14,343 nucleotides of DNA from a virus, in UHGV virus genome UHGV-1692207; one strand, 5' to 3'. Both the position numbers and the translations under genes were made by a program. Shown here one piece after another: positions 1 to 14,343 of the stretch (positions are counted from its first letter, which is position 1; every line of letters starts with the position of its first letter). The notes below the pieces were generated by a model. That model made no database searches and was not told where the DNA came from. It was given only the letters and a program-made list of their open reading frames with translations.

Positions 1-2
1 AC

Positions 3-188
3 CGGGAAATCTTCAGGGAGTTTAACGGACGCAACCACCACGAACTGGCCCGCAAGTTTGGTGTTTCGCTTCAGTGGGTCTACAGCGTGGTTAAGCGGGT
101 CAGAAAAGAAGAACTGGATCGGATGCAGGGCAGGTTGTTTGATGAAGATCTGCCAGAGGAGACGAAAGACGTTAACAAATCCAGATAA
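3..188 (+). CDS. Mor/C-family phage transcriptional activator, C-terminal fragment (5' end outside window)
   Basis: Open frame from the window edge to TAA at 186-188 (missed by the ORF track, which needs a Met). Translation ...EIFREFNGRNHHELARKFGVSLQWVYSVVKRVRKEELDRMQGRLFDEDLPEETKDVNKSR matches from memory the C-terminal helix-turn-helix region of Mu Mor (dFNGRN..EL...yGV....vY...rR.R pattern). An intrinsic terminator follows. Confidence 0.55.
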   Translation, partial: REIFREFNGRNHHELARKFGVSLQWVYSVVKRVRKEELDRMQGRLFDEDLPEETKDVNKSR

Positions 189-232
189 TTCCTGCTTGTT
201 AAAGTCCTTTCAAAAATCTCCTTATTGTATAA

Positions 233-264
233 AAGCACGGTAGACCCCTTACCGTGCTTTTTTT
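233..264 (+). terminator. Rho-independent terminator downstream of the Mor/C-like gene
   Basis: Perfect 9-bp stem AGCACGGTA (234-242) / TACCGTGCT (250-258), 7-nt loop, followed directly by a run of six T (259-264). Confidence 0.6.
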
Positions 265-302
265 ATGCTCTCTCTTTAGTATTCAGGATGCAGGGAGAAA
301 AT

Positions 303-935
303 ATGTTTGACGTTTCGTTGTTAAATCTGCCATGGGCAACACTGGTGACCCTGACCAGTGGCTATATTGGGTATTTTATTGCGAATGTGGGACTGAAGGA
401 TCACCACAAGCCCATTGAGGTGACTTTTTCTTCGCTGATTTTTGGCCTGACAGCAATGATGGCTTACCAGGCTGTTATGTGGGCAGGTCTGAATGCCTGG
501 CTGGCAACACCACCAGCACTTCTGTGTGCCGTTACATGCGGTGCGTGGTGGCGCAGGTACGGTCGCAAATGGATGTACAGATTACTGTGGAATAATGATG
601 TTTCATGGTCTGACGATACCAGCTCAGCATGGCAGGCAATGTTTGATCAAACAGGCTTCAGCGTTACCGAGGTCAGAGTGATTCTTCGCGATGGTTCCGG
701 TATGATGTCACGGCTGCCAGGGAACTTTGAAGAGTGGCCTAACGGTCCGTTTACCCTGGGGAATAAAGGCGATATGGTTCTTTACGTCACGCACAGCAGC
801 CCTTCAGGCAGTAACGAATGGGAAGAGTATAAAGGCGTGGTTGATAAGTACTGGGGAGCTCTGGCAACCTATATTCCAGCAGATCAGATTGCCAGAGTGG
901 AGATCAGGCGCGTTCGTGCAACGAACGATGAATGA
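303..935 (+). CDS. Hypothetical inner-membrane protein: three predicted N-terminal transmembrane helices plus a ~125-aa soluble C-terminal domain; function unknown (candidate phage moron)
   Basis: ATG at 303 preceded by AGGGAG (292-297) with 5-nt spacing; the longer ORF-track start at 225 would begin inside the upstream terminator. Hydrophobic stretches at about residues 9-31, 36-61 and 65-83, followed by a positively charged RRYGRKWMYR segment, then a hydrophilic domain. I recognise no family by eye. Confidence 0.7.
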   Translation: MFDVSLLNLPWATLVTLTSGYIGYFIANVGLKDHHKPIEVTFSSLIFGLTAMMAYQAVMWAGLNAWLATPPALLCAVTCGAWWRRYGRKWMYRLLWNNDVSWSDDTSSAWQAMFDQTGFSVTEVRVILRDGSGMMSRLPGNFEEWPNGPFTLGNKGDMVLYVTHSSPSGSNEWEEYKGVVDKYWGALATYIPADQIARVEIRRVRATNDE

Positions 936-938
936 TGT

Positions 939-1100
939 TTATTTTTTCCCTGGGGCAGGGGCTGCCGGCATAGTGGTTTTATTGGCAGAGGAAGACGATT
1001 CTCCTTTTCTACCGGAATCGCGCTCGAACGTCACGATGTGCTTGCTTTTGGGCTTTTCTGAGTAATCCAGGCTATCATGCTTATTGTTTTGAGTAGTCAT
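939..1100 (-). CDS. Small hypothetical hydrophilic protein (53 aa, Lys/Ser/Thr-rich), convergent with the membrane protein gene
   Basis: Minus-strand ORF, ATG at 1100 to TAA at 941-939, translating MTTQNNKHDSLDYSEKPKSKHIVTFERDSGRKGESSSANKTTMPAAPAPGKK. AAGGA Shine-Dalgarno 8 nt upstream of the ATG; sigma70-like promoter about 40 bp further upstream. Below the 60-aa ORF-track cut-off. An in-frame alternative ATG at 1109 has a poorly spaced SD. Confidence 0.35.
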   Translation of the reverse strand: MTTQNNKHDSLDYSEKPKSKHIVTFERDSGRKGESSSSANKTTMPAAPAPGKK

Positions 1101-1143
1101 TGGAATCATCCTTTTTGTTGCGGGTCATGTTTCAGCAAACTCG

Positions 1144-1173
1144 ATTCTAAGTTGCCAGGAAGGATGATTTCAA
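1144..1173 (-). promoter_or_regulatory. Putative sigma70 promoter for the small minus-strand ORF
   Basis: On the minus strand: -35 TTGAAA (complement of 1168-1173), 18-bp spacer, -10 TAGAAT (complement of 1144-1149). Each hexamer matches consensus at 5 of 6 positions. Predicted start near 1137, giving a ~37-nt leader. Confidence 0.3.
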
Positions 1174-1317
1174 TGCCCGACTTATCTATCGTATAGCGGA
1201 AAAGAATTTCAGTTCTGTTCACCAGAACCCATGTTAACCCACTCCAATTCGTTATTTATCTCACGGATCCCCCTTCATTTATCTCATGTCTGATCACTCA
1301 CCCTGCTGAAAGATGAA

Positions 1318-2121
1318 GTGGTGATGCGCCAGGAAGCCACGGTGATCACCGTTGGTGGTTCCGACTACAAAAAACTGGTGAATCTGGGCGGCACGGCTTC
1401 CGGATGGGTTGGCGAGACTGACGCGCGCTCCCAGACTGCCACCTCAAAACTGGGCCTGATTGAACCTTTCATGGGGGAAATCTACGGTAACCCGCAGGCC
1501 ACCCAGAAAATGCTGGATGATGCCTTTTTCAACGTGGAAGCATGGATCAACAGCGAGCTGGCAACCGAATTTGCCGAACAGGAAGAAATTGCCTTTACCA
1601 CCGGCGATGGTACCAAGAAGCCGAAAGGGTTCCTGGCGTATGAATCCACTGATGAAACCGATAAGGTCCGGGCGTTCGGCAAACTTCAGCATATTGTATC
1701 CGGCGAAGCGACGGCGGTGACCGCAGACGCCATTATCAAACTGATTTACACGCTGCGTAAGGCACACCGCACTGGCGCGAAGTTCATGATGAACAACAAC
1801 AGCCTGTTTGCCATCCGTCTGCTTAAAGACAGCGAGGGTAACTATCTGTGGCGTCCGGGGCTGGAACTGGGGCAGCCGTCCTCTCTGGCGGGTTACGGTA
1901 TCGCTGAAAACGAACAGATGCCGGATATCGCCGCTGATGCGAAAGCCATTGCATTTGGTAACTTCAAACGGGGTTACACCATCGTTGACCGTATCGGCAC
2001 CCGCATTCTGCGTGACCCGTACACCAATAAACCGTTTGTCGGTTTTTATACCACCAAGCGCACCGGCGGGATGCTGGTCGATTCGCAGGCCATCAAACTG
2101 CTGAAGATTGCAGCGGCGTAA
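1318..2121 (+). CDS. Major capsid protein, HK97 family, C-terminal ~2/3 only; probable 5'-truncated remnant
   Basis: C-terminal region (GYGIAENEQMPD...FGNFKRGYTIVDRIGTRILRDPYTNKPFVGFYTTKRTGGMLVDSQAIKLLKIA) resembles the HK97 gp5 A-domain/C-terminus as I recall it; a TGDGT motif sits near residue 97. The frame is open only from the TGA at 1291-1293. Only a GTG (1318) or an ATG (1324) without a convincing SD is available as start. The ~130 aa that would carry the delta domain and N-arm are absent, and upstream sequence is non-coding. Confidence 0.7.
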   Translation: MVMRQEATVITVGGSDYKKLVNLGGTASGWVGETDARSQTATSKLGLIEPFMGEIYGNPQATQKMLDDAFFNVEAWINSELATEFAEQEEIAFTTGDGTKKPKGFLAYESTDETDKVRAFGKLQHIVSGEATAVTADAIIKLIYTLRKAHRTGAKFMMNNNSLFAIRLLKDSEGNYLWRPGLELGQPSSLAGYGIAENEQMPDIAADAKAIAFGNFKRGYTIVDRIGTRILRDPYTNKPFVGFYTTKRTGGMLVDSQAIKLLKIAAA

Positions 2122-2127
2122 TCACTC

Positions 2128-2150
2128 AGGGGCGCGGAACCGCGCCCCCT
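2128..2150 (+). terminator. GC-rich hairpin after the capsid gene (attenuator or partial terminator)
   Basis: GGGGCGC (2129-2135) pairs with GCGCCCC (2142-2148) around a GGAACC/GAAC loop. The downstream tract CTGTTCTG is only weakly T-rich, so readthrough is likely. Position after the major capsid gene is typical for stoichiometry control. Confidence 0.4.
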
Positions 2151-2170
2151 GTTCTGACGGGTGAAGAATC

Positions 2171-2371
2171 ATGATCCTGAAACAAGATCTGAAATGGTCA
2201 CCGGACGGTATGCGTGTTGAGGTCATTCGGGCCGGTGAGTATGACGATGGGGCGCTTCCTGCCCGGGTGCAGGAGATTGCACTTCAGGCCGGGTTAGCAG
2301 AGCGCGGAATCAGTGCAAAAAGCAGTAAAGCGGCAAAAGAGAAAAAAGCCACGACCAGTAAAGAGGGCTGA
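2171..2371 (+). CDS. Hypothetical small head-module protein (66 aa)
   Basis: ORF between the capsid and connector genes. Its stop (2369-2371) lies 3 nt before the next start. Lys-rich C-terminus. No family recognised. Confidence 0.45.
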   Translation: MILKQDLKWSPDGMRVEVIRAGEYDDGALPARVQEIALQAGLAERGISAKSSKAAKEKKATTSKEG

Positions 2372-2373
2372 GT

Positions 2374-2697
2374 ATGCTTCTGACAATGGAAGAGATTAAA
2401 GCCCAACTCCGGCTGGATGAGGATTTCGATGCTGATGACCGCCATCTGCAACTGCTGGCCTGTGCGGCACAAAAGCGGACGGAAACGTATCTGAACCGGA
2501 AGCTCTATGCACCGGATGAAACCATTCCGGACAGCGATCCGGACGGGCTGCACCTGCCGGATGATATTCGTCTGGGGATGCTGATGCTTATCAGCCATTT
2601 TTACGAAAACCGCTCGTCGGTTACGGAAGTGGAGAAACTCGACATGCCGCAGAGTTTTGGCTGGCTTGTCGGCCCGTACAGGTACTTTCCGCAATGA
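2374..2697 (+). CDS. Head-tail connector protein (phage gp6-like)
   Basis: 107 aa, MLLTMEEIKAQLRLDEDFDADDRHLQLLACAAQKRTETYL... resembles gp6-type connector N-termini. SD GAGGG precedes the ATG. Its TGA overlaps the next start as ATGA. Confidence 0.7.
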   Translation: MLLTMEEIKAQLRLDEDFDADDRHLQLLACAAQKRTETYLNRKLYAPDETIPDSDPDGLHLPDDIRLGMLMLISHFYENRSSVTEVEKLDMPQSFGWLVGPYRYFPQ

Positions 2698-3104
2698 AAA
2701 TTCGTCAGGCGCAGACCAGCGCAACCTACATTCTGCCGGACCCCGGTGAACTGAATAAACGCGTCCTGATCCGCCTGCGGGTGGATATGCCCGCGGATAA
2801 CTTTGGCGTGGAGCCTCAATACCTGATTACGTTCCGGACATGGGCGAAGGTTATCCAGACCAGTGCCACCACCTGGCAGGAAACCGCGCAGACCGGGGAC
2901 GCCATCACCCATTACATCACCATTCGTTACCGCCGGGGGATTACCGCTGATTATGAGGTGGTCTGCGGTGACAGTGTGTACCGGGTGAAACGTCAGCGCG
3001 ATCTGAACGGGGCGCGGCGCTTTCTGCTGCTGGAGTGTACGGAGCTGGGCGAATGTAGGCAGAGTCACGGAGGCAACAATGACGACTTCCTTTTTGCACG
3101 TTGA
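2694..3104 (+). CDS. Head-tail adaptor / head closure protein (lambda gpFII / HK97 gp8-like)
   Basis: 136 aa with the GEL..RV.I...........G.....T....WA.V......E......TH.ITIRYRRGIT pattern of the head-tail joining family. Start overlaps the upstream stop (ATGA). Confidence 0.7.
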   Translation: MKIRQAQTSATYILPDPGELNKRVLIRLRVDMPADNFGVEPQYLITFRTWAKVIQTSATTWQETAQTGDAITHYITIRYRRGITADYEVVCGDSVYRVKRQRDLNGARRFLLLECTELGECRQSHGGNNDDFLFAR

Positions 3105-3585
3105 TTTTCAGCAGCCCGCGGAGATGCGCTTTAACCGCGCCCGTGTCCGGCGGGCGTTTGTCACGATTGGTCAGCGTCATATGCGTGATGCCCGTCGGCT
3201 GGTGATGCGCCGTGCGCGGTCGGCACCGGGTGAAAACCCCGGTTATCAGACCGGACGCCTGGCTCGTTCGATTGGTTACATGGTACCCAGAGCCAGTAAA
3301 CATCGCCCTGGTTTTATGGCACGTATAGCCCCTAACCAGCGTAATGGAGAGGGAAACCGCCGTATCACCGGTGATTTTTATCCGGCTTTTTTGTTCTATG
3401 GCGTGAGGCGAGGGGCAAAGCGTCGTCGCAGCCATCATCGTGGTGCATCCGGTGGCAGCGGCTGGCGACTGGCTCCACGTAATAACTTTATGGTGGAAAC
3501 GCTTGAAAAGAACCGCAGCTGGACACGCTATTTTCTGGCGCGGGAATTACGTAAATCACTGAAGCCGGAGCGACGACGCAGATGA
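3079..3585 (+). CDS. Tail-component / neck protein, HK97 gp10-like
   Basis: 168 aa, Arg-rich, with GRLARSIGY and YPAFLFYG motifs that resemble HK97 gp10-family proteins. Strong SD GGAGG (3069-3073) 5 nt before the ATG at 3079. Overlaps the 3' end of the previous gene by 26 nt. Confidence 0.6.
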   Translation: MTTSFLHVDFQQPAEMRFNRARVRRAFVTIGQRHMRDARRLVMRRARSAPGENPGYQTGRLARSIGYMVPRASKHRPGFMARIAPNQRNGEGNRRITGDFYPAFLFYGVRRGAKRRRSHHRGASGGSGWRLAPRNNFMVETLEKNRSWTRYFLARELRKSLKPERRRR

Positions 3586-4142
3586 AACTGACGCCTGTTA
3601 TTGCTGCGCTGCGTGCCCGCTGCCCGTATTTTGAAAACCGGGTGGCAGGCGCGGCACAGTTCAAAAATCTGCCGGAGGTCGGAAAGCTGAGACTCCCGGC
3701 GGCATATGTGGTACCGGGTGATGACTCTCCGGGAGAAAACAAAAGCCAGACCGACTACTGGCAGGAGCTGAAAGAGGGCTTCTCCGTGGTTGTCATACTG
3801 AGTAACGGACGTGATGAGCGCGGTCAGTTTGCCTCGTATGATGTGGTGGACGATGTCCGGCAGATGCTCTTTAAGGCCCTGCTGGGCTGGAACCCGGAAG
3901 CGTGCGGTAACCCGATTACCTATGACGGCGGCACGCTGCTGGATCTGAATCGTCATGAGCTGATTTATCAGTTCGATTTTTCGGTCATCAGAGAGCTGAC
4001 CGAAGACGATACCCGCCAGCAGGATGACCTGAACAGTCTGGATGAACTGCGAACGCTGGCGATTGATGTTGATTATCTCGATCCCGGTAACGGGTCTGAC
4101 GGCGATATCGAACATCACACCGAAATACCCCTTCCTTCCTGA
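3582..4142 (+). CDS. Putative tail completion / tail terminator protein (precedes sheath)
   Basis: 186 aa. ATG overlaps the upstream stop (ATGA at 3582-3585). Acidic C-terminus. Its position directly before the sheath gene matches Mu/SfV-type tail modules. The 196-aa antisense ORF at 3528-4118 is treated as a shadow. Confidence 0.55.
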   Translation: MKLTPVIAALRARCPYFENRVAGAAQFKNLPEVGKLRLPAAYVVPGDDSPGENKSQTDYWQELKEGFSVVVILSNGRDERGQFASYDVVDDVRQMLFKALLGWNPEACGNPITYDGGTLLDLNRHELIYQFDFSVIRELTEDDTRQQDDLNSLDELRTLAIDVDYLDPGNGSDGDIEHHTEIPLPS

Positions 4143-4150
4143 GGATCATT

Positions 4151-4321
4151 ATGTTTGTGAAACCTGTTAAAGGGCGGTCAGTGCCTGACCCTGCCCGCGG
4201 CGACCTTTTGCCCGCCGAAGGGCGAAATGTTGATGAGAACAACTACTGGCTGCGCCGTGAAGCAGCGGGTGATATCCGGCGCGTGAATAAAAAGGTGAAC
4301 ACCGATGACGATAAGCTTTAA
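4151..4321 (+). CDS. Small hypothetical protein (56 aa) upstream of the sheath gene
   Basis: Not in the ORF track (<60 aa). ATG at 4151 with SD GAGGA (4141-4145) at 5-nt spacing. Translates MFVKPVKGRSVPDPARGDLLPAEGRNVDENNYWLRREAAGDIRRVNKKVNTDDDKL. Fills the only gap in the operon and its 3' end overlaps the sheath start. Confidence 0.4.
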   Translation: MFVKPVKGRSVPDPARGDLLPAEGRNVDENNYWLRREAAGDIRRVNKKVNTDDDKL

Positions 4322-5801
4322 CACCATTCCGTCGAATACGCTGGTTCCGCTGTTTTATGCGGAAATGGATAACCAGGCTGCGAATACTGCACAGGACAGC
4401 GGAGCATCGCTGCTGATTGGTCATGCCAATAACGGTGCAGAGATTGTTGCCAACAGTCTGGTACTGATGCCGTCGGCAGACTATGCACGCCAGATTTGTG
4501 GTGCGGGAAGTCAGCTGGCGCGTATGGTCGAGGCTTATCGCCAGACTGACCCGTTTGGCGAGCTGTATGTGATTGCCGTTCCTGAATCCACAGGCGCGGC
4601 GGCAACGGTTACGCTGACGGTGACCGGGGCGGCAACCGAAACCGGCACGGTGAATGTGTATGTGGGACGTACCCGCGTGCAGGTACCGGTGACTAACGGC
4701 GATAACGTTACGATGATTGCCAGCAGTATCCAGGATGCCATCAATGCCGTTCCGACCCTGCCGTTTACGGCTTCATCTTCGGCAGGCGTGGTCACACTGA
4801 CCGCGCGTCATAAGGGGCTTTGCGGGAATGAAATTCCTGTCAGCCTCAATTACTACGGCTTTGGTGGGGGCGAAGTGCTGCCAGCGGGCGTACAGATTGC
4901 CGTGGTGACGGGTACCGCCGGAACGGGTGCTCCGGTTCTCACCGGCGCTGTGGCTGCAATGGCGGATGAGCCGTTTGATTATATCGGCCTGCCGTTCAAC
5001 GACACGGCCTCCGTTAACACGCTGGTGACCGAGATGAACGATACCAGCGGTCGCTGGAGCTATGCGCGTCAGCTGTATGGTCATGTGTATACGGCAAAGA
5101 CCGGCACGCTGTCAGAACTGGTGACCGCAGGTGACCAGTTTAACCAGCAGCACATTACCCTGGCGGGGTACGAAAAAGACACCCAGACGCCTGCCGACGA
5201 GCTGGCGGCAAGCCGTACCGCCCGCGCAGCGGTGTTTATCCGCAACGATCCGGCACGTCCCACGCAGACCGGTGAGCTGGTGGGTATGCTGCCTGCGCCG
5301 AAGGGGAAACGGTTCACGATGACCGAACAAAAGACCCTGCTGTCTCATGGCGTGGCAACGGCGTATGTCGAAAGCGGGGTACTGCGCATTCAGCGTGATG
5401 TCACCACGTACAGGAAAAACGCTTACGGGGTTGCGGATAACAGCTACCTCGACAGCGAGACGCTGCATACCAGTGCGTATGTACTGCGCAAACTGAAATC
5501 CGTCATTACCAGTAAGTACGGGCGTCACAAGCTTGCCAGCGACGGTACCCGCTTTGGTCCCGGTCAGGCGATTGTCACCCCGGCGGTGATCAAAGGGGAA
5601 CTGCTGGCAACCTACCGTCAGCTTGAGCGTGCGGGGATCGTGGAAAACTACGAACTTTTTAAGCAGTACCTGGTTGTGGAGCGTGATGCCAGCGATCCGA
5701 ACCGCCTGAACACGCTGTTCCCGCCTGACTATGTTAACCAGTTGCGTGTCTTTGCCGTGGTTAACCAGTTCCGTCTTCAGTATTCAGAGGAGTCCGCATA
5801 A
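4305..5801 (+). CDS. Contractile tail sheath protein (Mu gpL-like)
   Basis: 498 aa. N-terminus MTISFNTIPSNTLVPLFYAEMDN resembles Mu L (ISFN.IPS...VPL.Y.E.DN) as I recall it. SD AAGGTGA precedes the ATG. Size and position fit a sheath. Confidence 0.9.
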   Translation: MTISFNTIPSNTLVPLFYAEMDNQAANTAQDSGASLLIGHANNGAEIVANSLVLMPSADYARQICGAGSQLARMVEAYRQTDPFGELYVIAVPESTGAAATVTLTVTGAATETGTVNVYVGRTRVQVPVTNGDNVTMIASSIQDAINAVPTLPFTASSSAGVVTLTARHKGLCGNEIPVSLNYYGFGGGEVLPAGVQIAVVTGTAGTGAPVLTGAVAAMADEPFDYIGLPFNDTASVNTLVTEMNDTSGRWSYARQLYGHVYTAKTGTLSELVTAGDQFNQQHITLAGYEKDTQTPADELAASRTARAAVFIRNDPARPTQTGELVGMLPAPKGKRFTMTEQKTLLSHGVATAYVESGVLRIQRDVTTYRKNAYGVADNSYLDSETLHTSAYVLRKLKSVITSKYGRHKLASDGTRFGPGQAIVTPAVIKGELLATYRQLERAGIVENYELFKQYLVVERDASDPNRLNTLFPPDYVNQLRVFAVVNQFRLQYSEESA

Positions 5802-6157
5802 TGGCCCGTATCGGGGGAACCTGTTATTTCAAAATTGACGGTCAGCAGCTATCGCTGACCGGCGGCATTGAGGTGCCCATGAACAGGACGGTCAATGATG
5901 ACATCATCGGCCTGGACGGTTCAGTGGACCGCAAGGAAACTCACCGTGCGCCTTATGTTAAAGGGACCTTCAAGGTGCCGAAGAATTTTCCGGTGAGCAA
6001 AATCACCTCGTCTGATGAGATGACCATCACTGCCGAGCTGGCGAACGGTCAGGTCTATGTACTGTCGTCTGCCTGGCTGCACGGCGAAGCGAACCATAAT
6101 GCCGAAGAAGGGACGGTTGATCTTGAGTTCCACGGTGAAGAAGGGGATTACCAGTAA
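5801..6157 (+). CDS. Tail tube protein (Mu gpM-like)
   Basis: 118 aa immediately after the sheath gene. Start overlaps the sheath stop (TAATG). SD GGAG at 5789-5792. Confidence 0.8.
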   Translation: MARIGGTCYFKIDGQQLSLTGGIEVPMNRTVNDDIIGLDGSVDRKETHRAPYVKGTFKVPKNFPVSKITSSDEMTITAELANGQVYVLSSAWLHGEANHNAEEGTVDLEFHGEEGDYQ

Positions 6158-6426
6158 TGAAAGAGCTTGAGTTAAAGAAACCGATTACCGCTCATGGCGA
6201 GACACTCTCCGTACTGGAGTTTGATGAGCCCACCGGGAAAGATGTCCGCGAGCTGGGGTATCCCTACCAGATGAATCAGGATGAGTCCGTCAGACTTCTG
6301 GCGCATGTGGTATCGAAATACATTGTGCGGCTGGCGAAAGTGCCGCAAAACTCTGTCGACCAGATGTCTCCGGCAGACCTGAATGCTGCGGCGTGGCTTG
6401 TGGCTGGTTTTTTCCTCCAGGCCTGA
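6157..6426 (+). CDS. Tail assembly chaperone (lambda G / P2 E analogue), short form
   Basis: 89 aa between the tube and tape measure genes. Start overlaps the tube stop (TAATG). A slippery heptamer lies near its 3' end. Confidence 0.7.
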   Translation: MKELELKKPITAHGETLSVLEFDEPTGKDVRELGYPYQMNQDESVRLLAHVVSKYIVRLAKVPQNSVDQMSPADLNAAAWLVAGFFLQA

Positions 6427-6575
6427 CGGCTGAATACCTCACTGATCGCTTCTTTGACTGCGCCAGCTACTGGCGCATTAATCCCTTCGAATTGCTGAAT
6501 ATGCCGATCAGTGAAATTCCCTTGCTGGTCAGTCAGGCAAACAGGATAGAGCAGGAGAAACGCACACATGGCTGA
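6157..6575 (+). CDS. Tail assembly chaperone, long form made by programmed -1 frameshift (G-T / E-E' analogue)
   Basis: Slippery heptamer T_TTT_TTC at 6408-6414 in the zero frame. The -1 frame is open from there to TGA at 6573-6575 (...FFPPGLTAEYLTDRFFDCASYWRINPFELLNMPISEIPLLVSQANRIEQEKRTHG), ending inside the tape measure start. Confidence 0.55.
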
Positions 6576-8403
6576 ATTTGAGCTTAAGGCGTTGATCACC
6601 GGTGTCGACAGGCTTTCTCCCGCGCTGTCGAAAATGCAAAAGAAAATCCGGGGATTTAAACGCCAGGCGGAAGAAGCGTCACAGGGTGGGCTGGCGCTTG
6701 GTGGCGGACTGGCTGCGGGTCTGACGCTTTCCCTGAAATCTTATGCCGATCAGGAAAACGCCGCCACCGGGCTGAAAGTTGCCATGATGGATGCGAACGG
6801 TGAGGTCGGAAAGCGCTTTCAGGACATCAATAAACTGGCTATTGGTCTGGGTAACCAGCTACCCGGTACAACGGCTGATTTCCAGAACATGATGCAGATG
6901 CTGGTGCGTCAGGGGATCCCGGCAGAAAACATTCTTGGCGGTGTGGGTAAAGCGACAGCTTATCTTGCGGTACAACTGAAAAAAACACCGGAAGCGGCTG
7001 CCGAGTTTGCCGCAAAGATGCAGGATGCTACCGGAACGGCGTCAGAAGACATGATGGGGCTGTTCGACACTATCCAGAAGGCGTTTTATCTGGGCGTTGA
7101 CGATACCAACATGTTGTCCTTCTTCACTAAAACCAGCTCTGTTCTGAAGATGGTGAACAAGGACGGTCTTCAGGCTGCACAGAGCCTTGCCCCCATCAGC
7201 GTCATGATGGATCAGATGGGGATGAACGGGGAGTCGGCAGGTAACGCCCTGCGAAAAGTTATCCAGTCCGGATTAAGCGTTAAGAAAATCAGGGACGTCA
7301 ATAAAGTCATGGCCCGCCAGAAACTCGGGGTACAGCTCGATTTTACTGACGGCAAAGGGAGTTTTGGCGGTCTTGATAACATGTTCAGGCAACTGGCAAA
7401 GCTGCGAAAACTGACCGACGTTAAGCGAACTGGTGTACTTAAGGCAATATTTGGTGATGATGCCGAAACCCTTCAGGTGGTCAATGCACTAATCGATAAA
7501 GGAAAGGATGGCTACGACCAGATCCAGCAGAAGATGAATAAACAGGCCAGTCTGAATAAACGTGTTCAGGCACAGCTTGGTACGCTGTCCAACCTGTGGG
7601 AGGCAATGACAGGGACCGCAACTAACGGCCTTGCGGCTATTGGCGGCGCATTTTCTGGTGACGCTAAAAATATCACGCAATGGCTGGGGGAGTTGGGGGA
7701 GAAATTCACGAAGTTTGCGGATGAAAATCCCCGGGTTATTCGCGGCGTCGTCGGGCTTGCTGCCGGTCTTGCGATTCTGAAACTGGGATTGATGGGCGTT
7801 GGCGGTGCCATCAGTATTGTCAGCAGGATCATGTCGATGACGCCGATTGGCATGATTGCGACGGCGATAGCCCTGGCTGCGGGATTAATTATCACTAACT
7901 GGGATGTTGTCGGACCTTATTTCAAGAAGCTCTGGGAAACCATTGGTCCTTATTTTGAGGCTGGCCGGGAACTTCTGAAGAAGGTTTTTGCCTGGTCGCC
8001 GCTGGGGATGGTAATCAATAACTGGGGACCGGTTGTTAAGTGGTTTCAGGATATGTGGGACAAGCTGAAGCCAATTATTGAGTGGTTTACCGACAGTTCC
8101 GGTGACACGGTCGATGCCATTAACTCTGCGCAGTGGGGCGCGGGTGCTTATGATGCTTATGGGACGGGAATACCGGCACGGGGATACACACCTTATCAGG
8201 CGGTGGATCCGGCTCAGTCAAACAACGCCTCCGGTGCCACAGGCCCGAATCCCTTCATGATTAACAAAGCTTCTGCGCCAAAAGTTGATGGTGAGATCAA
8301 GGTCTCTTTTGTGAATTCACCTCCGGGTATGCGGGTTATGGAAACGCGATCCAGCGGTTTTGATGTCAGCCATGATGTTGGCTATACGCGCTTTGGCAGG
8401 TAA
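6568..8403 (+). CDS. Tail tape measure protein
   Basis: 611 aa with Gly/Ala-rich hydrophobic segments and a position right after the chaperone frameshift pair. SD AGGAGA at 6552-6557. Confidence 0.85.
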   Translation: MAEFELKALITGVDRLSPALSKMQKKIRGFKRQAEEASQGGLALGGGLAAGLTLSLKSYADQENAATGLKVAMMDANGEVGKRFQDINKLAIGLGNQLPGTTADFQNMMQMLVRQGIPAENILGGVGKATAYLAVQLKKTPEAAAEFAAKMQDATGTASEDMMGLFDTIQKAFYLGVDDTNMLSFFTKTSSVLKMVNKDGLQAAQSLAPISVMMDQMGMNGESAGNALRKVIQSGLSVKKIRDVNKVMARQKLGVQLDFTDGKGSFGGLDNMFRQLAKLRKLTDVKRTGVLKAIFGDDAETLQVVNALIDKGKDGYDQIQQKMNKQASLNKRVQAQLGTLSNLWEAMTGTATNGLAAIGGAFSGDAKNITQWLGELGEKFTKFADENPRVIRGVVGLAAGLAILKLGLMGVGGAISIVSRIMSMTPIGMIATAIALAAGLIITNWDVVGPYFKKLWETIGPYFEAGRELLKKVFAWSPLGMVINNWGPVVKWFQDMWDKLKPIIEWFTDSSGDTVDAINSAQWGAGAYDAYGTGIPARGYTPYQAVDPAQSNNASGATGPNPFMINKASAPKVDGEIKVSFVNSPPGMRVMETRSSGFDVSHDVGYTRFGR

Positions 8404-8426
8404 TGAAAAATTAATCTGTTAATGAG

Positions 8427-8450
8427 TCCCACTCCGGTGGGATTTTTTAT
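8427..8450 (+). terminator. Intra-operon hairpin plus T-tract (attenuator or terminator) between the tape measure and N-like genes
   Basis: Stem TCCCAC (8427-8432) / GTGGGA (8437-8442), loop TCCG, then TTTTTTAT (8443-8450). Confidence 0.45.
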
Positions 8451-8463
8451 GTACGGAGTTTAT

Positions 8464-9792
8464 ATGACGTGGAAAGACAGACTTCAGGACGCGTCATTTC
8501 GCGGTGTGCCGTTTAAGGTTGAAGAAGAAAGTGCGGGAACCGGTCGTCGTGTGGAAACGCACGAATACCCGAACCGCGACAAACCCTATACCGAAGACCT
8601 GGGGAAAATCACTTTCCGCCCGTCCATCACAGCTTATGTGGTGGGAGATGACTGCTTTGACCAGCGCGATCGCCTGATTGACGCGCTGAATAAACCCGGT
8701 CCCGGCACGCTTGTCCATCCGACTTACGGTGAGCTGAAAGTCTGTGTTGACGGGGAAGTTCGGGTCAGCACATCGAAGAGTGAAGGGCGTATTGTCCGCT
8801 TTGACCTGAAGTTTGTCGAAGCGGGAGAACTCTCTTACCCCACTTCAGGTGCGGCGACGGCGCAGACGCTGATGTCATCCTGTTCTGCACTGGATGACTG
8901 CATCAGTGACAGCTTCAGTGGTTTCAGTATCGATGGCGTGGCAGATTTTGTGCAGAACGACGTCGTCGGTAATGCCAGCACAATGCTTGGGTATGTTTCT
9001 GATGCGATGAAAGTGGTGGATTCTGCCGTATCGGATGCCGCCAGGCTGTTGCAGGGGGATATCTCGGTACTTCTGCCGCCGCCATCGTCAGGCAAAAATT
9101 TCGTTGAGCAGGTGCAGAAAATGTGGCGTACCGGGAAACGCCTTTATGGTAACGCCAGCGACCTGGTCACCATGATCAAAACGCTTTCCGGTGTCAGCCT
9201 CGGCAGCGATCTGCAACCGCGCGGCGTCTGGAAAACGGACAGTAAAACCACCGCCACGGCGACGCAGCAGCGTAACGTGGTTGCCAGCACCCTTCGTACG
9301 ACCGCAATCAGCGAAGCGGCGTATGCCGTCACACGATTGCCTGCGCCCACAACTTCCGCGGTGATGCAGAATGCCACAGTGGGGCAGTCAACAACACCCG
9401 CGCAGAGCACCGGCTGGCCTTCTGTCACGCATCCGGCACTGAACAATGCACCGGCGGTGAAAAACACGGTTGACCTGCCAACGTGGGAAGAACTGACCGA
9501 CATTCGCGACACACTGAATACGGCAATTGATAAGGAGTTGTCCCGTACAACCAGTGATGTGCTGTTTCTGGCGCTGCGCCGGGTGAAAGCAGATCTGAAT
9601 GCGGATATCAACACGCGCCTTGAACAGTCTGCACGGATCATTCAGCGCACACCGGATGAGGTTTTACCCGCGCTGGTGCTGGCGGCGACCTGGTTTGATA
9701 ACGCGGCGCGTGACGCGGACATTATCCGGCGTAATGCCATTACGCATCCCGGCTTTGTGCCGGTGATCCCTCTGAAGGTGCCAGTGCAATGA
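8464..9792 (+). CDS. Mu gpN-like tail protein (DNA circularisation protein N family)
   Basis: N-terminus MTWKDRLQDASFRGVPFKV...GRRVETHEYPNRDKPYTEDLGK matches the Mu N signature as I recall it. I place the start at ATG 8464 (GGAG at 8455-8458, 5-nt spacing) rather than the ORF-track 8422, which would translate through the hairpin. Confidence 0.85.
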   Translation: MTWKDRLQDASFRGVPFKVEEESAGTGRRVETHEYPNRDKPYTEDLGKITFRPSITAYVVGDDCFDQRDRLIDALNKPGPGTLVHPTYGELKVCVDGEVRVSTSKSEGRIVRFDLKFVEAGELSYPTSGAATAQTLMSSCSALDDCISDSFSGFSIDGVADFVQNDVVGNASTMLGYVSDAMKVVDSAVSDAARLLQGDISVLLPPPSSGKNFVEQVQKMWRTGKRLYGNASDLVTMIKTLSGVSLGSDLQPRGVWKTDSKTTATATQQRNVVASTLRTTAISEAAYAVTRLPAPTTSAVMQNATVGQSTTPAQSTGWPSVTHPALNNAPAVKNTVDLPTWEELTDIRDTLNTAIDKELSRTTSDVLFLALRRVKADLNADINTRLEQSARIIQRTPDEVLPALVLAATWFDNAARDADIIRRNAITHPGFVPVIPLKVPVQ

Positions 9793-10868
9793 ACGATAAC
9801 GTCACGCTACGGGTAAATGGCCGGGAGTGGAATGGCTGGACATCGGTGCGCATCGGTGCCGGTATTGAACGGCTGGCGCGGGATTTCAGTGTGGAGATCA
9901 CCCGCCAGTGGCCGGGTGATGAGGGTATCACCACGCTTCAGCCGCGCATTAAAAACGGTTCAAAAGTGGAGGTGCTGATTGGTGATGAGCTGGTGATCAC
10001 CGGCTGGGTGGAGGCGACGCCCGTTCGTTACGATGCCCGTTCGGTCAGCACCGGTATTGCCGGACGCAGTCTGACCGCTGACCTGATTGACTGTGCAGCC
10101 GAACCGACACAGTTTAACGGACGATCGCTGGTACAGATTGCGCAGGCGCTTGCTGCGCCTTTCGGCATTGAGGTGGTGAACAACGGTGCGCCGTCGGGTG
10201 TTATTCCTGACGTCCAGCCCGATCACGGTGAAACGGTGATTGAGGTAATCAACAAAATACTCGGTCAGCAGCAGGCACTGGCTTACGACGACCCACACGG
10301 CAGGCTGGTGATTGGCGGTATTGGCTCAACGCGGGCACATACTGCGCTGGTACTCGGGGAAAACATCCTTTCCTGCGATACGGAGAAGAGTATCCGGGAG
10401 CGGTTTTCTGTTTACCAGGTGGCGGGGCAGCGTGCTGGAAACGACGATGATTTCGGTGAGGCCACCACCAGCGCGCTGCGGGCCCGCACAGAGGACGCAT
10501 TTATTGCCCGTTACCGTCCGATGTATATCAGGCAGACAGGGCAGGCTACGGGGGCAGGCTGTATTGCGCGTGCTGACTTTGAAGCCCGACAACGGGCGGC
10601 GCGGACGGATGAAACCACCTATGTGGTGCAGGGCTGGCGACAGGGTAACGGTACGCTGTGGCAGCCCAACCAGCGGGTGATTGTCTTCGATCCGGTCTGT
10701 GGTTTCGACAATACCGAACTGCTTGTCTCGGAAGTCACGTTTACTCAGGACCAGAACGGCACCCTGACGGAAATCCGTGTCGGCCCACCTGATGCTTATC
10801 TGCCTGAACCCGAAGCCCCCGGCGCGCGGAAAAAGAAAAAAGCCAGAGTACAGGAGGACCCGTTCTGA
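9789..10868 (+). CDS. Mu gpP-like baseplate hub / tail protein (P2 gpD-like)
   Basis: 359 aa. N-terminus ...LRVNGREWNGWTSVRIGAGIERLARDFSVEIT fits the gpD/Mu P family pattern. Start overlaps the upstream stop (ATGA). Confidence 0.8.
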   Translation: MNDNVTLRVNGREWNGWTSVRIGAGIERLARDFSVEITRQWPGDEGITTLQPRIKNGSKVEVLIGDELVITGWVEATPVRYDARSVSTGIAGRSLTADLIDCAAEPTQFNGRSLVQIAQALAAPFGIEVVNNGAPSGVIPDVQPDHGETVIEVINKILGQQQALAYDDPHGRLVIGGIGSTRAHTALVLGENILSCDTEKSIRERFSVYQVAGQRAGNDDDFGEATTSALRARTEDAFIARYRPMYIRQTGQATGAGCIARADFEARQRAARTDETTYVVQGWRQGNGTLWQPNQRVIVFDPVCGFDNTELLVSEVTFTQDQNGTLTEIRVGPPDAYLPEPEAPGARKKKKARVQEDPF

Positions 10869-11416
10869 TGAGTACGATTGAAGCCATGCAGCGACAACTC
10901 CTCGGCCTGATTGGGCGGGCAGTGGTGAAAAGCATCAGTGCCGCCACGAAATGTCAGACCGTGGATGTGTCCCTGATTGCCGGTGAACCCAAAGCCGGGG
11001 TTGAACATCTTGAACCCTACGGTTTTACCGCAAGGGCAAACAGCGGTGCGGAAGCGGTGGTGTTGTTTCCGGATGGTGACCGTTCTCATGCGGTGGTTGT
11101 TACGGTGTCGGACCGGCGCTACCGCCTGAAAGGGCTGCAGACGGGTGAGGTGGCGGTCTATGACGATCAGGGGCAGTCTGTGACGCTGACCCGGGAGGGG
11201 ATCGTGGTGGACGGTGCAGGTAAAACGATCACGTTTCGCAATGCACCTGAAGCACGTTTTGAAATGGACCTGGAAGTGACAGGACAGGTGAAAGACCTGT
11301 GCGACTCCAGCGGCACCACCATGTCAGCGATGCGGCTTGCCTATAACGGGCATCGTCACAGAGAGAACGGTCAGGGCAGTAACACCGACAAACCTGATAA
11401 AGCGATGGAGGCATGA
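10868..11416 (+). CDS. Baseplate assembly protein V-like (Mu gp45-like spike)
   Basis: 182 aa. Start overlaps the upstream stop (TGATG). Position after the P-like gene. Confidence 0.7.
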   Translation: MSTIEAMQRQLLGLIGRAVVKSISAATKCQTVDVSLIAGEPKAGVEHLEPYGFTARANSGAEAVVLFPDGDRSHAVVVTVSDRRYRLKGLQTGEVAVYDDQGQSVTLTREGIVVDGAGKTITFRNAPEARFEMDLEVTGQVKDLCDSSGTTMSAMRLAYNGHRHRENGQGSNTDKPDKAMEA

Positions 11417-11841
11417 TGGAACTGTGGCTGACGGTGAACGGTAAACGCACCTGCGCCAGCGCACCGCTGGATCCGCTGACCCGCGCCGTGGTGATTTCCC
11501 TGTTTACCTGGCGGCGGGCGGAGCCTGATGACAACGCCGACGTCCCGATGGGATGGTGGGGGGATACCTGGCCTGCGGTACAGAATGACCGTTACGGCTC
11601 CCGACTGTGGCTGCTTCAGCGCAGCAAACTGACCAATCAGCTGGTGCAGACGGTAAGGGGGTATATCCGCGAATGCCTGCAATGGATGATTGATGACGGC
11701 GTGGTGTCCCGTATTGATCTGGATATCCTCCGCACCGGGATTAATGAACTGGGTAACAGTATCACTCTCTGGCGTCGTGACGGACCGGTAATGATTTCTT
11801 TAGATGATCTGTGGAGTGCGATAACGCATGGCGGACAGTGA
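11413..11841 (+). CDS. Baseplate protein, Mu gp46 / GPW (gp25-like) family
   Basis: 142 aa, in conserved order after the V-like gene. Start is ATG 11413 or the adjacent 11416; GGAGG at 11406-11410 favours 11416. Confidence 0.7.
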   Translation: MMELWLTVNGKRTCASAPLDPLTRAVVISLFTWRRAEPDDNADVPMGWWGDTWPAVQNDRYGSRLWLLQRSKLTNQLVQTVRGYIRECLQWMIDDGVVSRIDLDILRTGINELGNSITLWRRDGPVMISLDDLWSAITHGGQ

Positions 11842-12886
11842 ATTTCAGCGCCCGACGCTGGCAGAAAATATCAGTATGCTCCGTAACGATTTATTCGCCA
11901 GGCTGGACGTCAGCGACACGCTCCGGCGCATGGATGAAGACGTGCGGGCAAAGGTGTATGCGGCGGCGCTGCATACGGTTTACGGGTACATCGATTATCT
12001 GGCAATGAACATGCTGCCTGACCTGTGCGATGAGTCCTGGCTGGCGCGACATGCTGCGATGAAACGGTGTCCGCGCAAGGGGGCCACGACTGCCAGCGGG
12101 TATATGCGCTGGGAAGGCGTCAGCGATGGCCTGAAGGTGACCGCCGGGAGTGTTATTCAGCGCGATGACCTGATTCAGTACACGGCAACTGCCGATGCAA
12201 CCAGCGCCGGTGGTGTCCTGCGCGTGCCGATCGCCTGCTCAAGTGCAGGCGCGGTCGGTAACGCTGACGACGGTACGTCATTAATCCTGGTCACGCCGGT
12301 TAATGGTCTGCCGTCTTCCGGCGTGGCAGACACTCTGACAGGTGGATTTGATACTGAAGAGCTGGAAACGTGGCGCGCCCGCGTCATTGAGCGGTATTAC
12401 TGGACGCCTCAGGGCGGGGCTGACGGGGACTATGTTGTCTGGGCTAAAGAATTGCCCGGCATTACCCGCGCATGGGCATACCGTCACTGGATGGGAACGG
12501 GGACTGTCGGTGTGATGATTGCCAGCAGTGACCTGATTAATCCCATTCCGGAAGAATCAACGGAAACGGCGGCAAGACAACATATCGGGCCACTGGCCCC
12601 GGTGGCAGGCTCTGATTTGTATGTGTTCAGGCCGGTGGCGCATACGGTGGATTTTCATATCCGTGTGACGCCGGATACACCGGAAATACGGGCTGCCATC
12701 ACCGCGGAGTTGCGTTCGTTCCTGCTGCGTGATGGTTATCCGCAGGGAGAACTGAAGGTGTCGCGTATCAGTGAAGCGATTTCCGGTGCGAACGGGGAAT
12801 ACAGCCATCAATTGCTTGCACCGGCGGAAAATATCTCCATTGCAAAAAATGAACTGGCGGTTCTGGGGACGATTTCATGGGCGTGA
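11828..12886 (+). CDS. Baseplate J-like protein (Mu gp47-like)
   Basis: 352 aa, in conserved position. Overlaps the upstream gene by 14 nt and the downstream gene by 10 nt. Confidence 0.8.
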
Positions 12887-13461
12887 CAAACGATGATTAC
12901 ATCCGTCTGTTGTCGGCACTGCTGCCGCCCGGTCCGGCGTGGTCAGCCAGCGATCCGGCGATTGCCGGTGCGGCACAGTCATTAACCCGCGTTCATCAGC
13001 GTGCGGATGCCCTGATGCGGGAGCTGGATCCGCGCACCACCACCGAACTGATAAATCGCTGGGAGCGTCTGTGCGGCCTGCCGGATGAATGTATTCCCGC
13101 AGGAACACAGACCCTTCGCCAGCGTCAGCAACGACTGGATGCGAAGGTTAACCTGGCGGGCGGCATCAATGAGGATTTTTACCTTGCACAGCTTGCTGCC
13201 CTGGGCAGACCAGACGCCACCATCACGCGATACGACAAAAGCACGTTCACCTGCTCATCGGCCTGTACTGACGCGGTGAATGCGCCGGAATGGCGGTATT
13301 ACTGGCAGGTCAACATGCCAGCCGCCACCAACAGCACCTGGATGACATGTGGCGATCCCTGTGATTCCGCGCTGCGTATCTGGGGCGACACCGTCGTCGA
13401 ATGTGTGCTTAACAAACTCTGCCCTTCGCATACCTACGTAATTTTTAAATATCCGGAGTAA
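12877..13461 (+). CDS. Mu gp48-like tail protein (DUF2313 / YmfQ-like)
   Basis: 194 aa immediately upstream of the tail fibre gene, as in Mu-like baseplate modules. Cys-rich C-terminus. Confidence 0.7.
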
Positions 13462-13464
13462 TCC

Positions 13465-14232
13465 ATGCATCGTATAGACACGAAAACCGCGCAGAAGGAT
13501 AAGTTCGGCGCGGGTAAGAACGGTTTTACCCGTGGTAACCCCCAGACAGGCACGCCTGCCACCGATCTGGATGATGAGTACTTTGACATGTTGCAGGAAG
13601 AACTCTGCAGCGTGGTGGAGGCATCCGGTGCCAGTCTGGAGAAGGCGCGGCACGACCAGCTGCTTACCGCGCTTCGTGCGCTGCTGTTAAGCCGCAAGAA
13701 TCCGTTTAGCGATATCAAATCGGACGGCACGGTGAAAACGGCTCTCGAAAACCTTGGTTTGGGGGAAGGCTCTGCATTGCCTGTTGGTGTACCGGTTCCA
13801 TGGCCCACCGCCACACCGCCAGCAGGCTGGTTAAAGTGCGACGGGCGCGCCTTTACAAAAGAACAATATCCTGTTCTGGCCAGAGTCTACCCGACCCTCC
13901 GTCTTCCTGATTTACGCGGTGAGTTTATCCGTGGATGGGACGACGGGCGCAAGATTGACGAGGGGCGTAAGTTGCTTTCATGGCAGAAAGGTACACTGGT
14001 CGGCGGTCATGACGATAACGATTCTTCGCTGGATATCTCGTACATGAGTAACGGAAATAATATTGACTATGGCGGCGATAAGGTGTTTGCGGGGAATTAC
14101 CGTAGCGATTATTTGTGGTACGCAATTCTGGGTGGAACAAACAGTCGCGCAAAAGCCGAATTAAACGGAGCATTCTTTAACATAACCCGCCCCCGCAATA
14201 TCGCGTTTAACTATATCGTGAGGGCGGCGTGA
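13465..14232 (+). CDS. Tail fibre protein: conserved N-terminal baseplate-attachment part fused at an invertase crossover site to a variable C-terminal part with a tail-collar domain
   Basis: 255 aa. SD GGAG (13455-13458) 6 nt before the ATG. Collar-like motif PVGVPVPWP...[17 protein letters not shown]-terminus [11 protein letters not shown] is nearly identical to the lambda Stf C-terminus ([11 protein letters not shown]) as I recall it. Residues ALENLGL are encoded by the hix/gix-like site. Confidence 0.8.
13742..13767. other. Putative 26-bp crossover site for a Hin/Gin/Cin/Pin-family serine DNA invertase (left boundary of an invertible tail-fibre segment)
   Basis: CTCTCGAAAACC-TT-GGTTTGGGGGAA: imperfect dyad around a central TT. 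The left half matches the hixL half-site TTCTTGAAAACC at 10 of 12 positions. It sits in the tail fibre gene where constant and variable parts join. Confidence 0.5.
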
Positions 14233-14238
14233 TACCGT

Positions 14239-14343
14239 TCAGCTGGCAAGTGCCAGTGGCGCTTCCGGCCAGCTGATTTCAGGTGCCGTGCTGATATCCA
14301 GTGCGTTCAGCTCGTCGATATAATCCAGCACGGCGTTCAGTTT
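14239..14343 (-). CDS. Tail fibre assembly protein (Tfa-like), C-terminal fragment; 5' end beyond window
   Basis: Minus-strand frame open from the window edge to TGA (complement of 14239-14241). Translation ...KLNAVLDYIDELNALDISTAPEISWPEAPLALAS resembles the lambda Tfa C-terminus (...RVDTSTAPDIEWPAVP...) as I recall it. Convergent with the tail fibre gene, 6 nt between stops. Confidence 0.5.
   Translation of the reverse strand, partial: KLNAVLDYIDELNALDISTAPEISWPEAPLALAS

Follow-up and report, generated by a model that had tools for sequence, protein, structure and literature searches.

Temperate phages carry accessory genes known as morons, which have their own promoter and are inserted between conserved phage modules, HK97 gp15 and the lambda genes lom and bor being examples. 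Control by convergent sense and antisense transcription is familiar from P22 sieB/sas, lambda oop/cII, the pR and pL promoters of coliphage 186, and par of pAD1. Fold-back inhibition of the transposase messenger RNA (mRNA) of the insertion sequences (IS) IS10 and IS50 was reportedly described by Davis, Simons and Kleckner in 1985 and by the Reznikoff laboratory, and to our knowledge the shielding logic of such a fold-back has so far been described for IS transposases. Here, we analyze a small gene on the minus strand of UHGV virus genome UHGV-1692207, a 14,343-nucleotide (nt) stretch of DNA that we refer to as the window. The gene encodes a hydrophilic protein of 53 amino acids (aa) and converges on the gene of a larger membrane protein (Table 1). 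Its open reading frame (ORF) was already annotated, just as hypothetical, and the kinds of arrangement involved, a moron-like cassette and fold-back insulation, are also known. What is new is the evidence that the small ORF is a genuine gene family, its obligate convergent pairing, as judged from sequence comparison, with a DUF6338-like membrane protein across bacterial orders and phage types, a covarying fold-back that reaches over its translation start, and its location at the end of a Mu-like prophage; the last two were missed in the original prediction, an earlier reading of the window's letters.

The locus resembles each of the described systems in part. Like the morons, the cassette formed by the two genes has its own predicted promoter and a lower GC content and sits at module boundaries or genome ends in unrelated backbones, and one of its products is an inner-membrane protein, as in the case of HK97 gp15; unlike them, it is a fixed convergent two-gene unit whose small gene is without its own terminator. 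With IS10 and IS50 it shares a 5′ arm upstream of the gene's own start, a 3′ arm over the ribosome-binding site, a gene that reads inward from the element's end, and the predicted effect, deduced here from sequence alone, that read-through transcripts from host genes would be untranslatable. It differs in what is guarded, the product here being a 53-aa cargo protein of a transposable phage instead of a transposase, and in the position of the 5′ arm, right on the −35 hexamer. The convergent promoters with no terminator between them, and the possibly harmful or excluding membrane partner, are reminiscent of sieB/sas-type and type I toxin-antitoxin (TA) loci, from which the locus departs because its short transcript encodes a conserved protein, the overlap is a prediction, and the membrane protein has 210 aa with a folded cytoplasmic domain. 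DUF6338 (PF19865), finally, is a family of uncharacterised membrane proteins that relatives of the partner match weakly; the window's own membrane protein falls below the cut-off, with no DUF6338 match at E 0.1 in Pfam.

Table 1. Features of the small-gene locus and its surroundings (window coordinates)
Feature	Position	Strand	Basis or description
Small protein gene	1100..939	minus	ORF reading, RefSeq coding sequence, PHROG match, dN/dS, positional homologues
Shine-Dalgarno sequence AAGGA	1113..1109	minus	8 nt 5′ of ATG 1100
Sigma-70-type promoter (predicted)	1173..1144	minus	TTGAAA (1173..1168), 18 nt, TAGAAT (1149..1144); consensus scan 10/12
Fold-back 5′ arm, CAUUGAAAUCAUCCUU	1175..1160	minus	Over the −35 hexamer and half of the spacer; 5′ of the predicted start
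Fold-back 3′ arm, AAGGAUGAUUCCAAUG	1113..1098	minus	Over the Shine-Dalgarno sequence and AUG
Membrane-protein gene	303..935	plus	210-aa inner-membrane protein, three transmembrane helices, C-terminal Sm/SH3-like beta-barrel
Strong hairpin with A-run and T-run flanks	231..261	–	Between Mor and the membrane-protein gene; 13-bp stem, TTTTTTT on plus strand
Inward-facing terminator-like hairpin	1211..1229	minus	Between terminus and promoter; scan
Prophage right terminus, …TGATCA, end 1296	1254..1296	minus	Homology break and repeats

A Conserved Small Protein Gene

The TAA stop of the small ORF lies at 941..939 on the minus strand, by direct reading and in the ORF listing alike. The mechanical ORF list starts the frame at an ATG at 1109 and makes it 56 aa long; the ATG at 1100, which yields 53 aa (MTTQNNKHDSLDYSEKPKSKHIVTFERDSGRKGESSSSANKTTMPAAPAPGKK), is the start annotated by RefSeq in identical prophages (WP_001571575.1, "hypothetical protein") and the only one kept in relatives, which are without ATG 1109. 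The Shine-Dalgarno (SD) sequence is invariant across seven E. coli-type loci, and other relatives have an SD of the AGGA or GAGG type. The original prediction had named a 53-aa hydrophilic minus-strand ORF with a well-spaced AAGGA, a stop 3 nt from that of the membrane-protein gene, and an upstream TTGAAA-18-TAGAAT promoter, and all of these are found where it put them: the ORF and SD by reading, ORF list, and RefSeq; the two stops with only 936–938 between them, the membrane gene's TGA being at 933–935; and the promoter by a scan, its hexamers conserved across genera and its status still that of a predicted element. By composition, the protein is small and basic (5.8 kDa, pI 9.7, GRAVY −1.4) and ends in PAAPAPGKK. 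Modeled alone with AF2, which is informative here only as a sign of disorder, it has no secondary structure (pTM 0.14), and it is predicted to be disordered, basic, and strongly hydrophilic with a proline-rich C-terminal tail.

Substitution patterns and positional conservation both point to a coding function. Among E. coli alleles (dS 0.2–0.6), the ratio of nonsynonymous to synonymous substitution rates (dN/dS) of the small ORF is 0.07–0.56, lower than in any of the other five frames and close to that of the membrane-protein gene (0.08–0.28). At one locus (L003, NZ_CP158426), the ORF DNA is 46% identical, yet it encodes an intact 50-aa protein from the same ATG; left unannotated by RefSeq in that record, a protein of this type is called on 362 contigs (P0082). 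Database relatives are few (6 clusters with a single-sequence query, 22 with a profile), and when a profile was searched against 1.84 billion representatives, 16 of the 19 matches at E ≤ 0.001 were small proteins of this family. The membrane protein is far more widespread (72 database clusters) and served as the anchor for fetching diverged loci from species-representative genomes (L010–L020), IMG/VR (L021–L058), and metagenome contigs (L062–L064). An intact ORF of 33 to 62 aa in the same position and orientation was recovered at ~25 distinct loci, with the identity of the partner going down to ~30–40%. Because the frame is open in diverged loci and its substitutions are biased to synonymous sites, we regard it as highly probable that the ORF is a real gene, part of a conserved cassette. 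Frame conservation of this kind in homologous loci was the check proposed with the original prediction, which it bears out.

The same evidence bears on whether the locus might instead produce a noncoding antisense RNA against the membrane-protein mRNA, within which the ORF would be fortuitous. Since no terminator precedes the membrane gene, the transcripts are indeed expected to overlap, but the frame stays open in the ~25 diverged loci, the SD, the start, and the C-terminal motif are conserved, and dN/dS is low; moreover, the coding part diverges much faster than a pairing region shared with a conserved protein would allow, and in most loci the ORF and the membrane-protein coding sequence do not overlap. 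We consider this explanation extremely unlikely.

Gammaproteobacterial members of the family have in common M(T/S)xxNN…D(Y/F)SE(N/K)PK…VTFE… and a proline-rich end, with C termini such as PAPGKK, PAPLGKK, IRPKK, SPKR, and PLKKK. In alphaproteobacterial members, the (N/S)Y.P.T motif occurs once or twice, and the C terminus reads PPPSPKKK, PPPPKK, or PPNPRKD; the protein on sphingomonad-like contigs, 33 aa long, ends in PPPPAPSRK. The most widely kept feature is the proline-rich C terminus, mostly with basic residues after it. The protein matches phrog_15726 (E 1e-41), whose function category is "unknown," and has no match in Pfam or PADLOC. Rfam gave four matches in the region, all far under the gathering scores and all on the terminator hairpin, and a literature search by accession or PHROG identifier found no paper mentioning WP_001571575 or phrog_15726. 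Small proteins are systematically missed or left as "hypothetical"; the comparative data presented here turn this one into a supported family with an obligate membrane partner.

Convergent Pairing with a Membrane-Protein Gene

In every locus with enough downstream DNA, bar one lineage, a convergent hydrophilic ORF of 33 to 62 aa lies beyond the membrane-protein gene. The stop-to-stop gap ranges from −20 to +12 nt, with one locus at +43. Paired loci come from Citrobacter, Serratia, Salmonella, Symbiopectobacterium, Rhizobiaceae, Pseudochrobactrum, and Bradyrhizobium, and the pair is also present on IMG/VR prophage contigs of unstated host and on sphingomonad-like metagenome contigs. The exception consists of Mu-like prophages of Arsenophonus and "Ca. 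Pantoea persica" and a related viral contig (L014, L015, and L044), in which a deletion has removed the ORF, its untranslated region (UTR), and the −10 hexamer but has spared the membrane gene, which is intact, as well as the −35 arm and the phage end (L014, 3134–3330).

The phage context of the pair varies. In enterics, it lies at the end of a Mu-like prophage; in a Rhizobiaceae prophage, it follows a D12 methylase gene (L017); and in Pseudochrobactrum-type loci, it lies between gp6-like connector and head-completion genes of an HK97-type prophage (L018, L064). The GC content of the cassette is 47 to 50%, compared with 54 to 58% in the prophage arms. In having its own predicted promoter, a distinct composition, and a presence in different phage backbones and positions, the cassette has the properties that define a moron. 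These comparisons indicate that the two genes, arranged tail to tail, form one moron-like accessory cassette, which is passed on as a single unit between temperate phages of Gamma- and Alphaproteobacteria; being so defined, it can be cloned and assayed for phage exclusion, toxicity, and lysis control. Of 5,426 complete E. coli genomes, 118 (about 2%) have the block almost in full, including clinical isolates of extraintestinal pathogenic E. coli (ExPEC)/sequence type 131 (ST131). Among 50,697 phage records, blastn of the region gave no match, and tblastn of the membrane protein against the phage records found one distant cyanophage only.

That cyanophage is Synechococcus phage Ssp-JY41, whose homologue is 29% identical (L060, 2483–3226). 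At the opposite end of its linear record (L061, 425–854) are three tandem small ORFs that end in PPPPKPKR, PPPPKPKR, and PPPPKR and would be convergent with the membrane gene if the genome were circularly permuted. Their proline-rich products were considered as homologues of the small-protein family and set aside at an hhalign probability of 12.7%; we take them as an analogy only.

The membrane protein falls into phrog_12870, again of function category "unknown." Its C-terminal domain has an Sm-like fold, with the barrel cytoplasmic. Matches to DUF6338 at E ≤ 0.1 were obtained for 16 of 28 relatives (best 8.5e-6), and five database relatives carry a precomputed PF19865 match, suggesting that the membrane protein is a distant relative of that family; in the literature, DUF6338 is mentioned just in passing with no function, and searches for the protein accessions gave nothing useful. 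The transmembrane (TM) part has weak BFVD matches to LydA-type holins (E 0.02–0.9), and the annotated holin/SLT cassette of the prophage is ~13 kb from the pair, which therefore does not have the location of a holin gene.

Within the pair, the small protein appears to follow one domain of its neighbor. Across 15 gammaproteobacterial loci, its identity correlates with that of the barrel domain (rho 0.71) and not with that of the TM domain (rho −0.01). The L003 locus is a mosaic in which, relative to window positions 650–1095, the barrel half (64%) and the small ORF (46%) are replaced as a block; its TM half, promoter/UTR, and phage end stay 85 to 97% identical to the window. These observations and the retention of the pair argue against the small gene being independent cargo, that is, a real protein unrelated to the membrane protein, the two being neighboring morons at a prophage end. 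Such independence would fit the separate promoters on opposite strands and the fact that no known domain links the two proteins. However, the tail-to-tail order with a near-zero gap has been kept over 30 to 70% protein divergence, in at least three unrelated contexts, and in several orders, and the small protein co-varies with a single domain of the membrane protein. Two independent genes are, in our assessment, quite unlikely, and it is the pairing kept across orders and phage contexts that favors a partner of the membrane protein over an independent small gene.

Location at the End of a Mu-like Prophage

Homology to window positions 150–1300 ends at ~1296 in more than 100 E. coli genomes (megablast, 5,426 complete genomes), and the flank beyond this point differs by genome (fliC, yfaV, flgA, clbG, yeiB, rstB, fadM, xylR, and others). 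In strain KE50, the element is a ~38-kb prophage with two divergent arms, a layout that we take to resemble that of BcepMu. The late arm contains holin, SLT, terminase, portal, and tail genes and an invertase, and the early arm contains helix-turn-helix regulators, an rve-type transposase, an ExeA/MuB-like ATPase, Gam, gp16/GemA, and Mor; beyond Mor, the membrane-protein gene is followed by the small gene, the last one before the prophage end. In the window, the repeat G(A)TGAGATAAAT is present at 1287..1277 and again at 1264..1254, as two putative binding sites of the transposase; in KE50, the left end has two copies of GCGATAAAT in the inverted orientation, and a 6-bp duplication of the target, CTCAGA, lies on either side of the insertion in fliC. 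Judging from the homology break and the repeats, window 1..1296 represents the right end of a transposable, Mu-like prophage, whose terminal gene, reading inward, is the small gene.

The remainder of the window (1297–14343) derives from a different, myovirus-type prophage with tail genes that is present in 1,338 of the 5,426 complete E. coli genomes. Its truncated major capsid ORF (1318–2121) has just the C-terminal 267 codons on this side, the Mu-like phage having inserted in the capsid gene of another prophage, and this target prophage should be inactivated. Separately, a 145-bp piece of a related Mu-like end, ~90% identical to window 1143–1287, is present and unannotated on large plasmids whose hosts are avian and human E. 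coli, namely pSA186_2 and ~100 others; in pSA186_2 (L004, 3001–3144) it adjoins IS remnants. The piece extends outward from the −10 hexamer as far as the terminal repeats, is without the small ORF and the last 9 bp, and is probably the relic of an old insertion.

Promoter and Predicted Fold-Back Insulation

The start of transcription of the small gene is predicted near 1137. In the seven E. coli-type loci, both promoter hexamers are invariant, and hardly anything differs between the −35 hexamer and the ATG; TTGAAA, TAGAAT, and their spacing are also kept in Citrobacter, Serratia, Symbiopectobacterium, and Salmonella diarizonae, with a spacer that varies in its 3′ half. The UTR and promoter block is 93 to 96% identical where the coding DNA is 46 to 88% identical, the lower figure being that of L003. 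The promoter is credible because its hexamers are conserved, not because of its scan score.

This block also contains an inverted repeat. The arm over the −35 hexamer (CATTGAAATCATCCTT) is the reverse complement of the arm over the SD and AUG (AAGGATGATTCCAATG), and minimum free energy (MFE) folds of a hypothetical read-through RNA pair both arms in 10 gammaproteobacterial loci despite their differing sequences; in L049, for example, TTGTAA pairs with TTACAA. In an alignment of nine sequences, 80.5% of the cells of the 19-pair helix are paired, as against 29 to 53% when the partner is slid by 1 to 3 columns; 7 of the 19 pairs are changed on both sides, and none of 500 shuffles reached as high a value. 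The read-through RNA of the window has an MFE of −22.9 kcal/mol (z −2.55), whereas RNA from the predicted start is unstructured (−3.2 kcal/mol) and its SD is free. The geometry of the repeat in an inward-reading gene and the compensatory changes in the nine sequences are those of a fold-back element, and the comparison supports a conserved inverted repeat that sets the −35 hexamer and spacer against the SD and AUG. Read-through RNA from a flanking host gene would carry the 5′ arm, fold over the SD and AUG, and so remain untranslated, while the transcript from the gene's own promoter would have an unstructured, translatable leader and be independent of the repressed early operon. Such insulation would be an advantage for a phage whose random insertions fall in transcribed genes. 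If correct, this would clearly illustrate how a transposable phage can protect a cargo gene against transcription from any host gene at its landing site.

Some of the evidence tells against the insulation model. The promoter match taken alone is at chance level (2 sites in 2.4 kb vs. 1.7 expected), both the promoter and the transcription start are predictions, and the covariation comes from nine related sequences and a structure derived from those same sequences. Alternatively, the invariant block at 1100–1200 and the inverted repeat could be cis-acting DNA, with transposase, IHF, or repressor sites, of which the hexamers and the fold-back would be by-products. Mu attL spans about 180 bp, and the block here, at a distance of 120 to 200 bp from the terminus, shows stronger conservation than the coding DNA beside it; the insignificance of the promoter scan on its own would also suit this explanation. 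Yet the terminal repeats that can be recognized (GAGATAAAT) all fall within the last 45 bp, and in two loci (L002 and L009) the segment between them and the −35 hexamer has been replaced and the block kept. Furthermore, the changes in the arms are compensatory in the RNA sense, and the 3′ arm corresponds to exactly the SD and AUG. A role as cis-acting DNA is therefore improbable, and an own promoter with fold-back insulation is, in our view, the probable explanation of the block.

Candidate Roles of the Pair

Because the small protein is predicted to be disordered and co-varies with the barrel of the membrane protein, not with its TM domain, we tentatively read it as a partner or antagonist of the membrane protein, a plausible role that we hold at somewhat less than even confidence. 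In this model, the small protein would be expressed constitutively from its own sigma-70 promoter, independently of where the prophage has inserted, and its proline-rich basic tail, which resembles a PxxP-x-K/R motif, would dock on the Sm/SH3-like cytoplasmic barrel. The antagonist and antisense transcription together would keep a possibly holin-like membrane effector quiet in the lysogen. Candidate functions for such a module are superinfection exclusion, abortive infection, lysis modulation, and addiction. The chain as a whole, from genuine gene through insulation to partner of the membrane protein, seems to us about evenly poised between right and wrong.

The partner model has to contend with several observations. 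The symbiont lineage tolerates the membrane gene without the small gene, so that, as its genomes read, the small protein is not strictly needed there. The correlation between the barrel and the small ORF could just reflect linkage and a recombination hotspot at the domain boundary. Against docking of a basic tail, some relatives have acidic ends (APPPRD, PFPSEE, and APLDND), and the E. coli tail, PAAPAPGKK, fits the PxxPx+ motif loosely at best. Finally, none of the PADLOC defence models gave a match.

A more specific version would be a two-component system in which a holin-like effector with three TM helices is gated by a disordered mini-protein that plugs the barrel with its proline-rich basic tail. 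Antisense transcription and the fold-back would then form a switch, and only once the small gene is overridden, by early or middle phage transcription or by an incoming phage, would the effector be freed. This version is rather unlikely as it stands; if true, it would mean that a new class of modules, acting in exclusion, abortive infection, or lysis timing, is distributed across Proteobacteria.

The pair could also be a TA or addiction module that stabilizes the prophage, in which a membrane toxin is countered by a labile type II-like antitoxin or by a type I- or III-like antisense antidote. A small, disordered, constitutively promoted product beside a protein with a weakly holin-like TM domain is what such a module might contain, and the predicted convergent, unterminated transcription and tight insulation of expression point the same way, as do marginal matches of three relatives to the Pfam family Cpta_toxin (E 0.037). 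The resemblance does not extend to the defining features of either type. The genes are convergent and form no operon, and the small protein has no predicted fold and no DNA-binding antitoxin domain, contrary to type II; the membrane protein is 210 aa long with a folded domain and not a peptide, and the short gene is protein coding and its product hydrophilic, contrary to type I. There is no match to a TA or defence profile in Pfam or PADLOC, the ORF is under selection at the protein level, and the symbiont lineage has lost the small gene and keeps an intact membrane gene. A prophage that transposes replicatively would, in addition, gain little from addiction. We consider a TA module unlikely. 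Of the roles that the original prediction had proposed, a regulator or partner of the membrane protein or else an independent gene, that of a partner is thus favored by the conserved pairing, and its antitoxin-like variant falls short of types I and II.

Transcript Ends and Neighboring Hairpins

A scan found no terminator-like site between the two stops or on the minus strand within the membrane gene, and a canonical intrinsic terminator was sought for either gene and not found. The original prediction had likewise seen no terminator between the genes; the scan agrees, and overlapping antisense 3′ ends, which it deduced from this, remain a reasonable prediction. A hairpin at 912–928 was rejected as a terminator, its T-run being 11 nt away and on the plus strand only. 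The first terminator-like structure that the small gene's transcript would meet is the hairpin at 231..261, which is structurally conserved in relatives and whose stem is followed on the minus strand by TTTTATAC; it looks like the terminator of the early/middle operon and appears to be bidirectional, and it would then also stop a long antisense transcript that started at the promoter of the small gene. No conserved promoter for the membrane gene was found in 189–302, by eye or by scan. Lying downstream of Mor and behind this strong terminator, the membrane gene is probably expressed by read-through in lytic development, and an unterminated transcript of the small gene would run antisense through it and exert additional antisense pressure. 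On the other side of the promoter, the hairpin at 1211..1229 is present in the window and four relatives (L003 and L005–L007) and is replaced in L002 and L009; it is a possible, if weak, additional barrier to transcription from outside.

The membrane gene contains a perfect 9-bp inverted repeat, CTCTGGCAA…TTGCCAGAG, at 861–899 on the plus strand, in the codons for ALAT…IARV; read along the minus strand, it comes 35 to 75 nt after the stop of the small gene. The repeat uses the rare AGA Arg codon, and many enteric relatives have retained it; L037 shows a joint change of the two arms (L to M and R to M; ATGGCAA/TTGCCAT). It may be a stabilizer of the RNA 3′-end, a processing site, or a coincidence.

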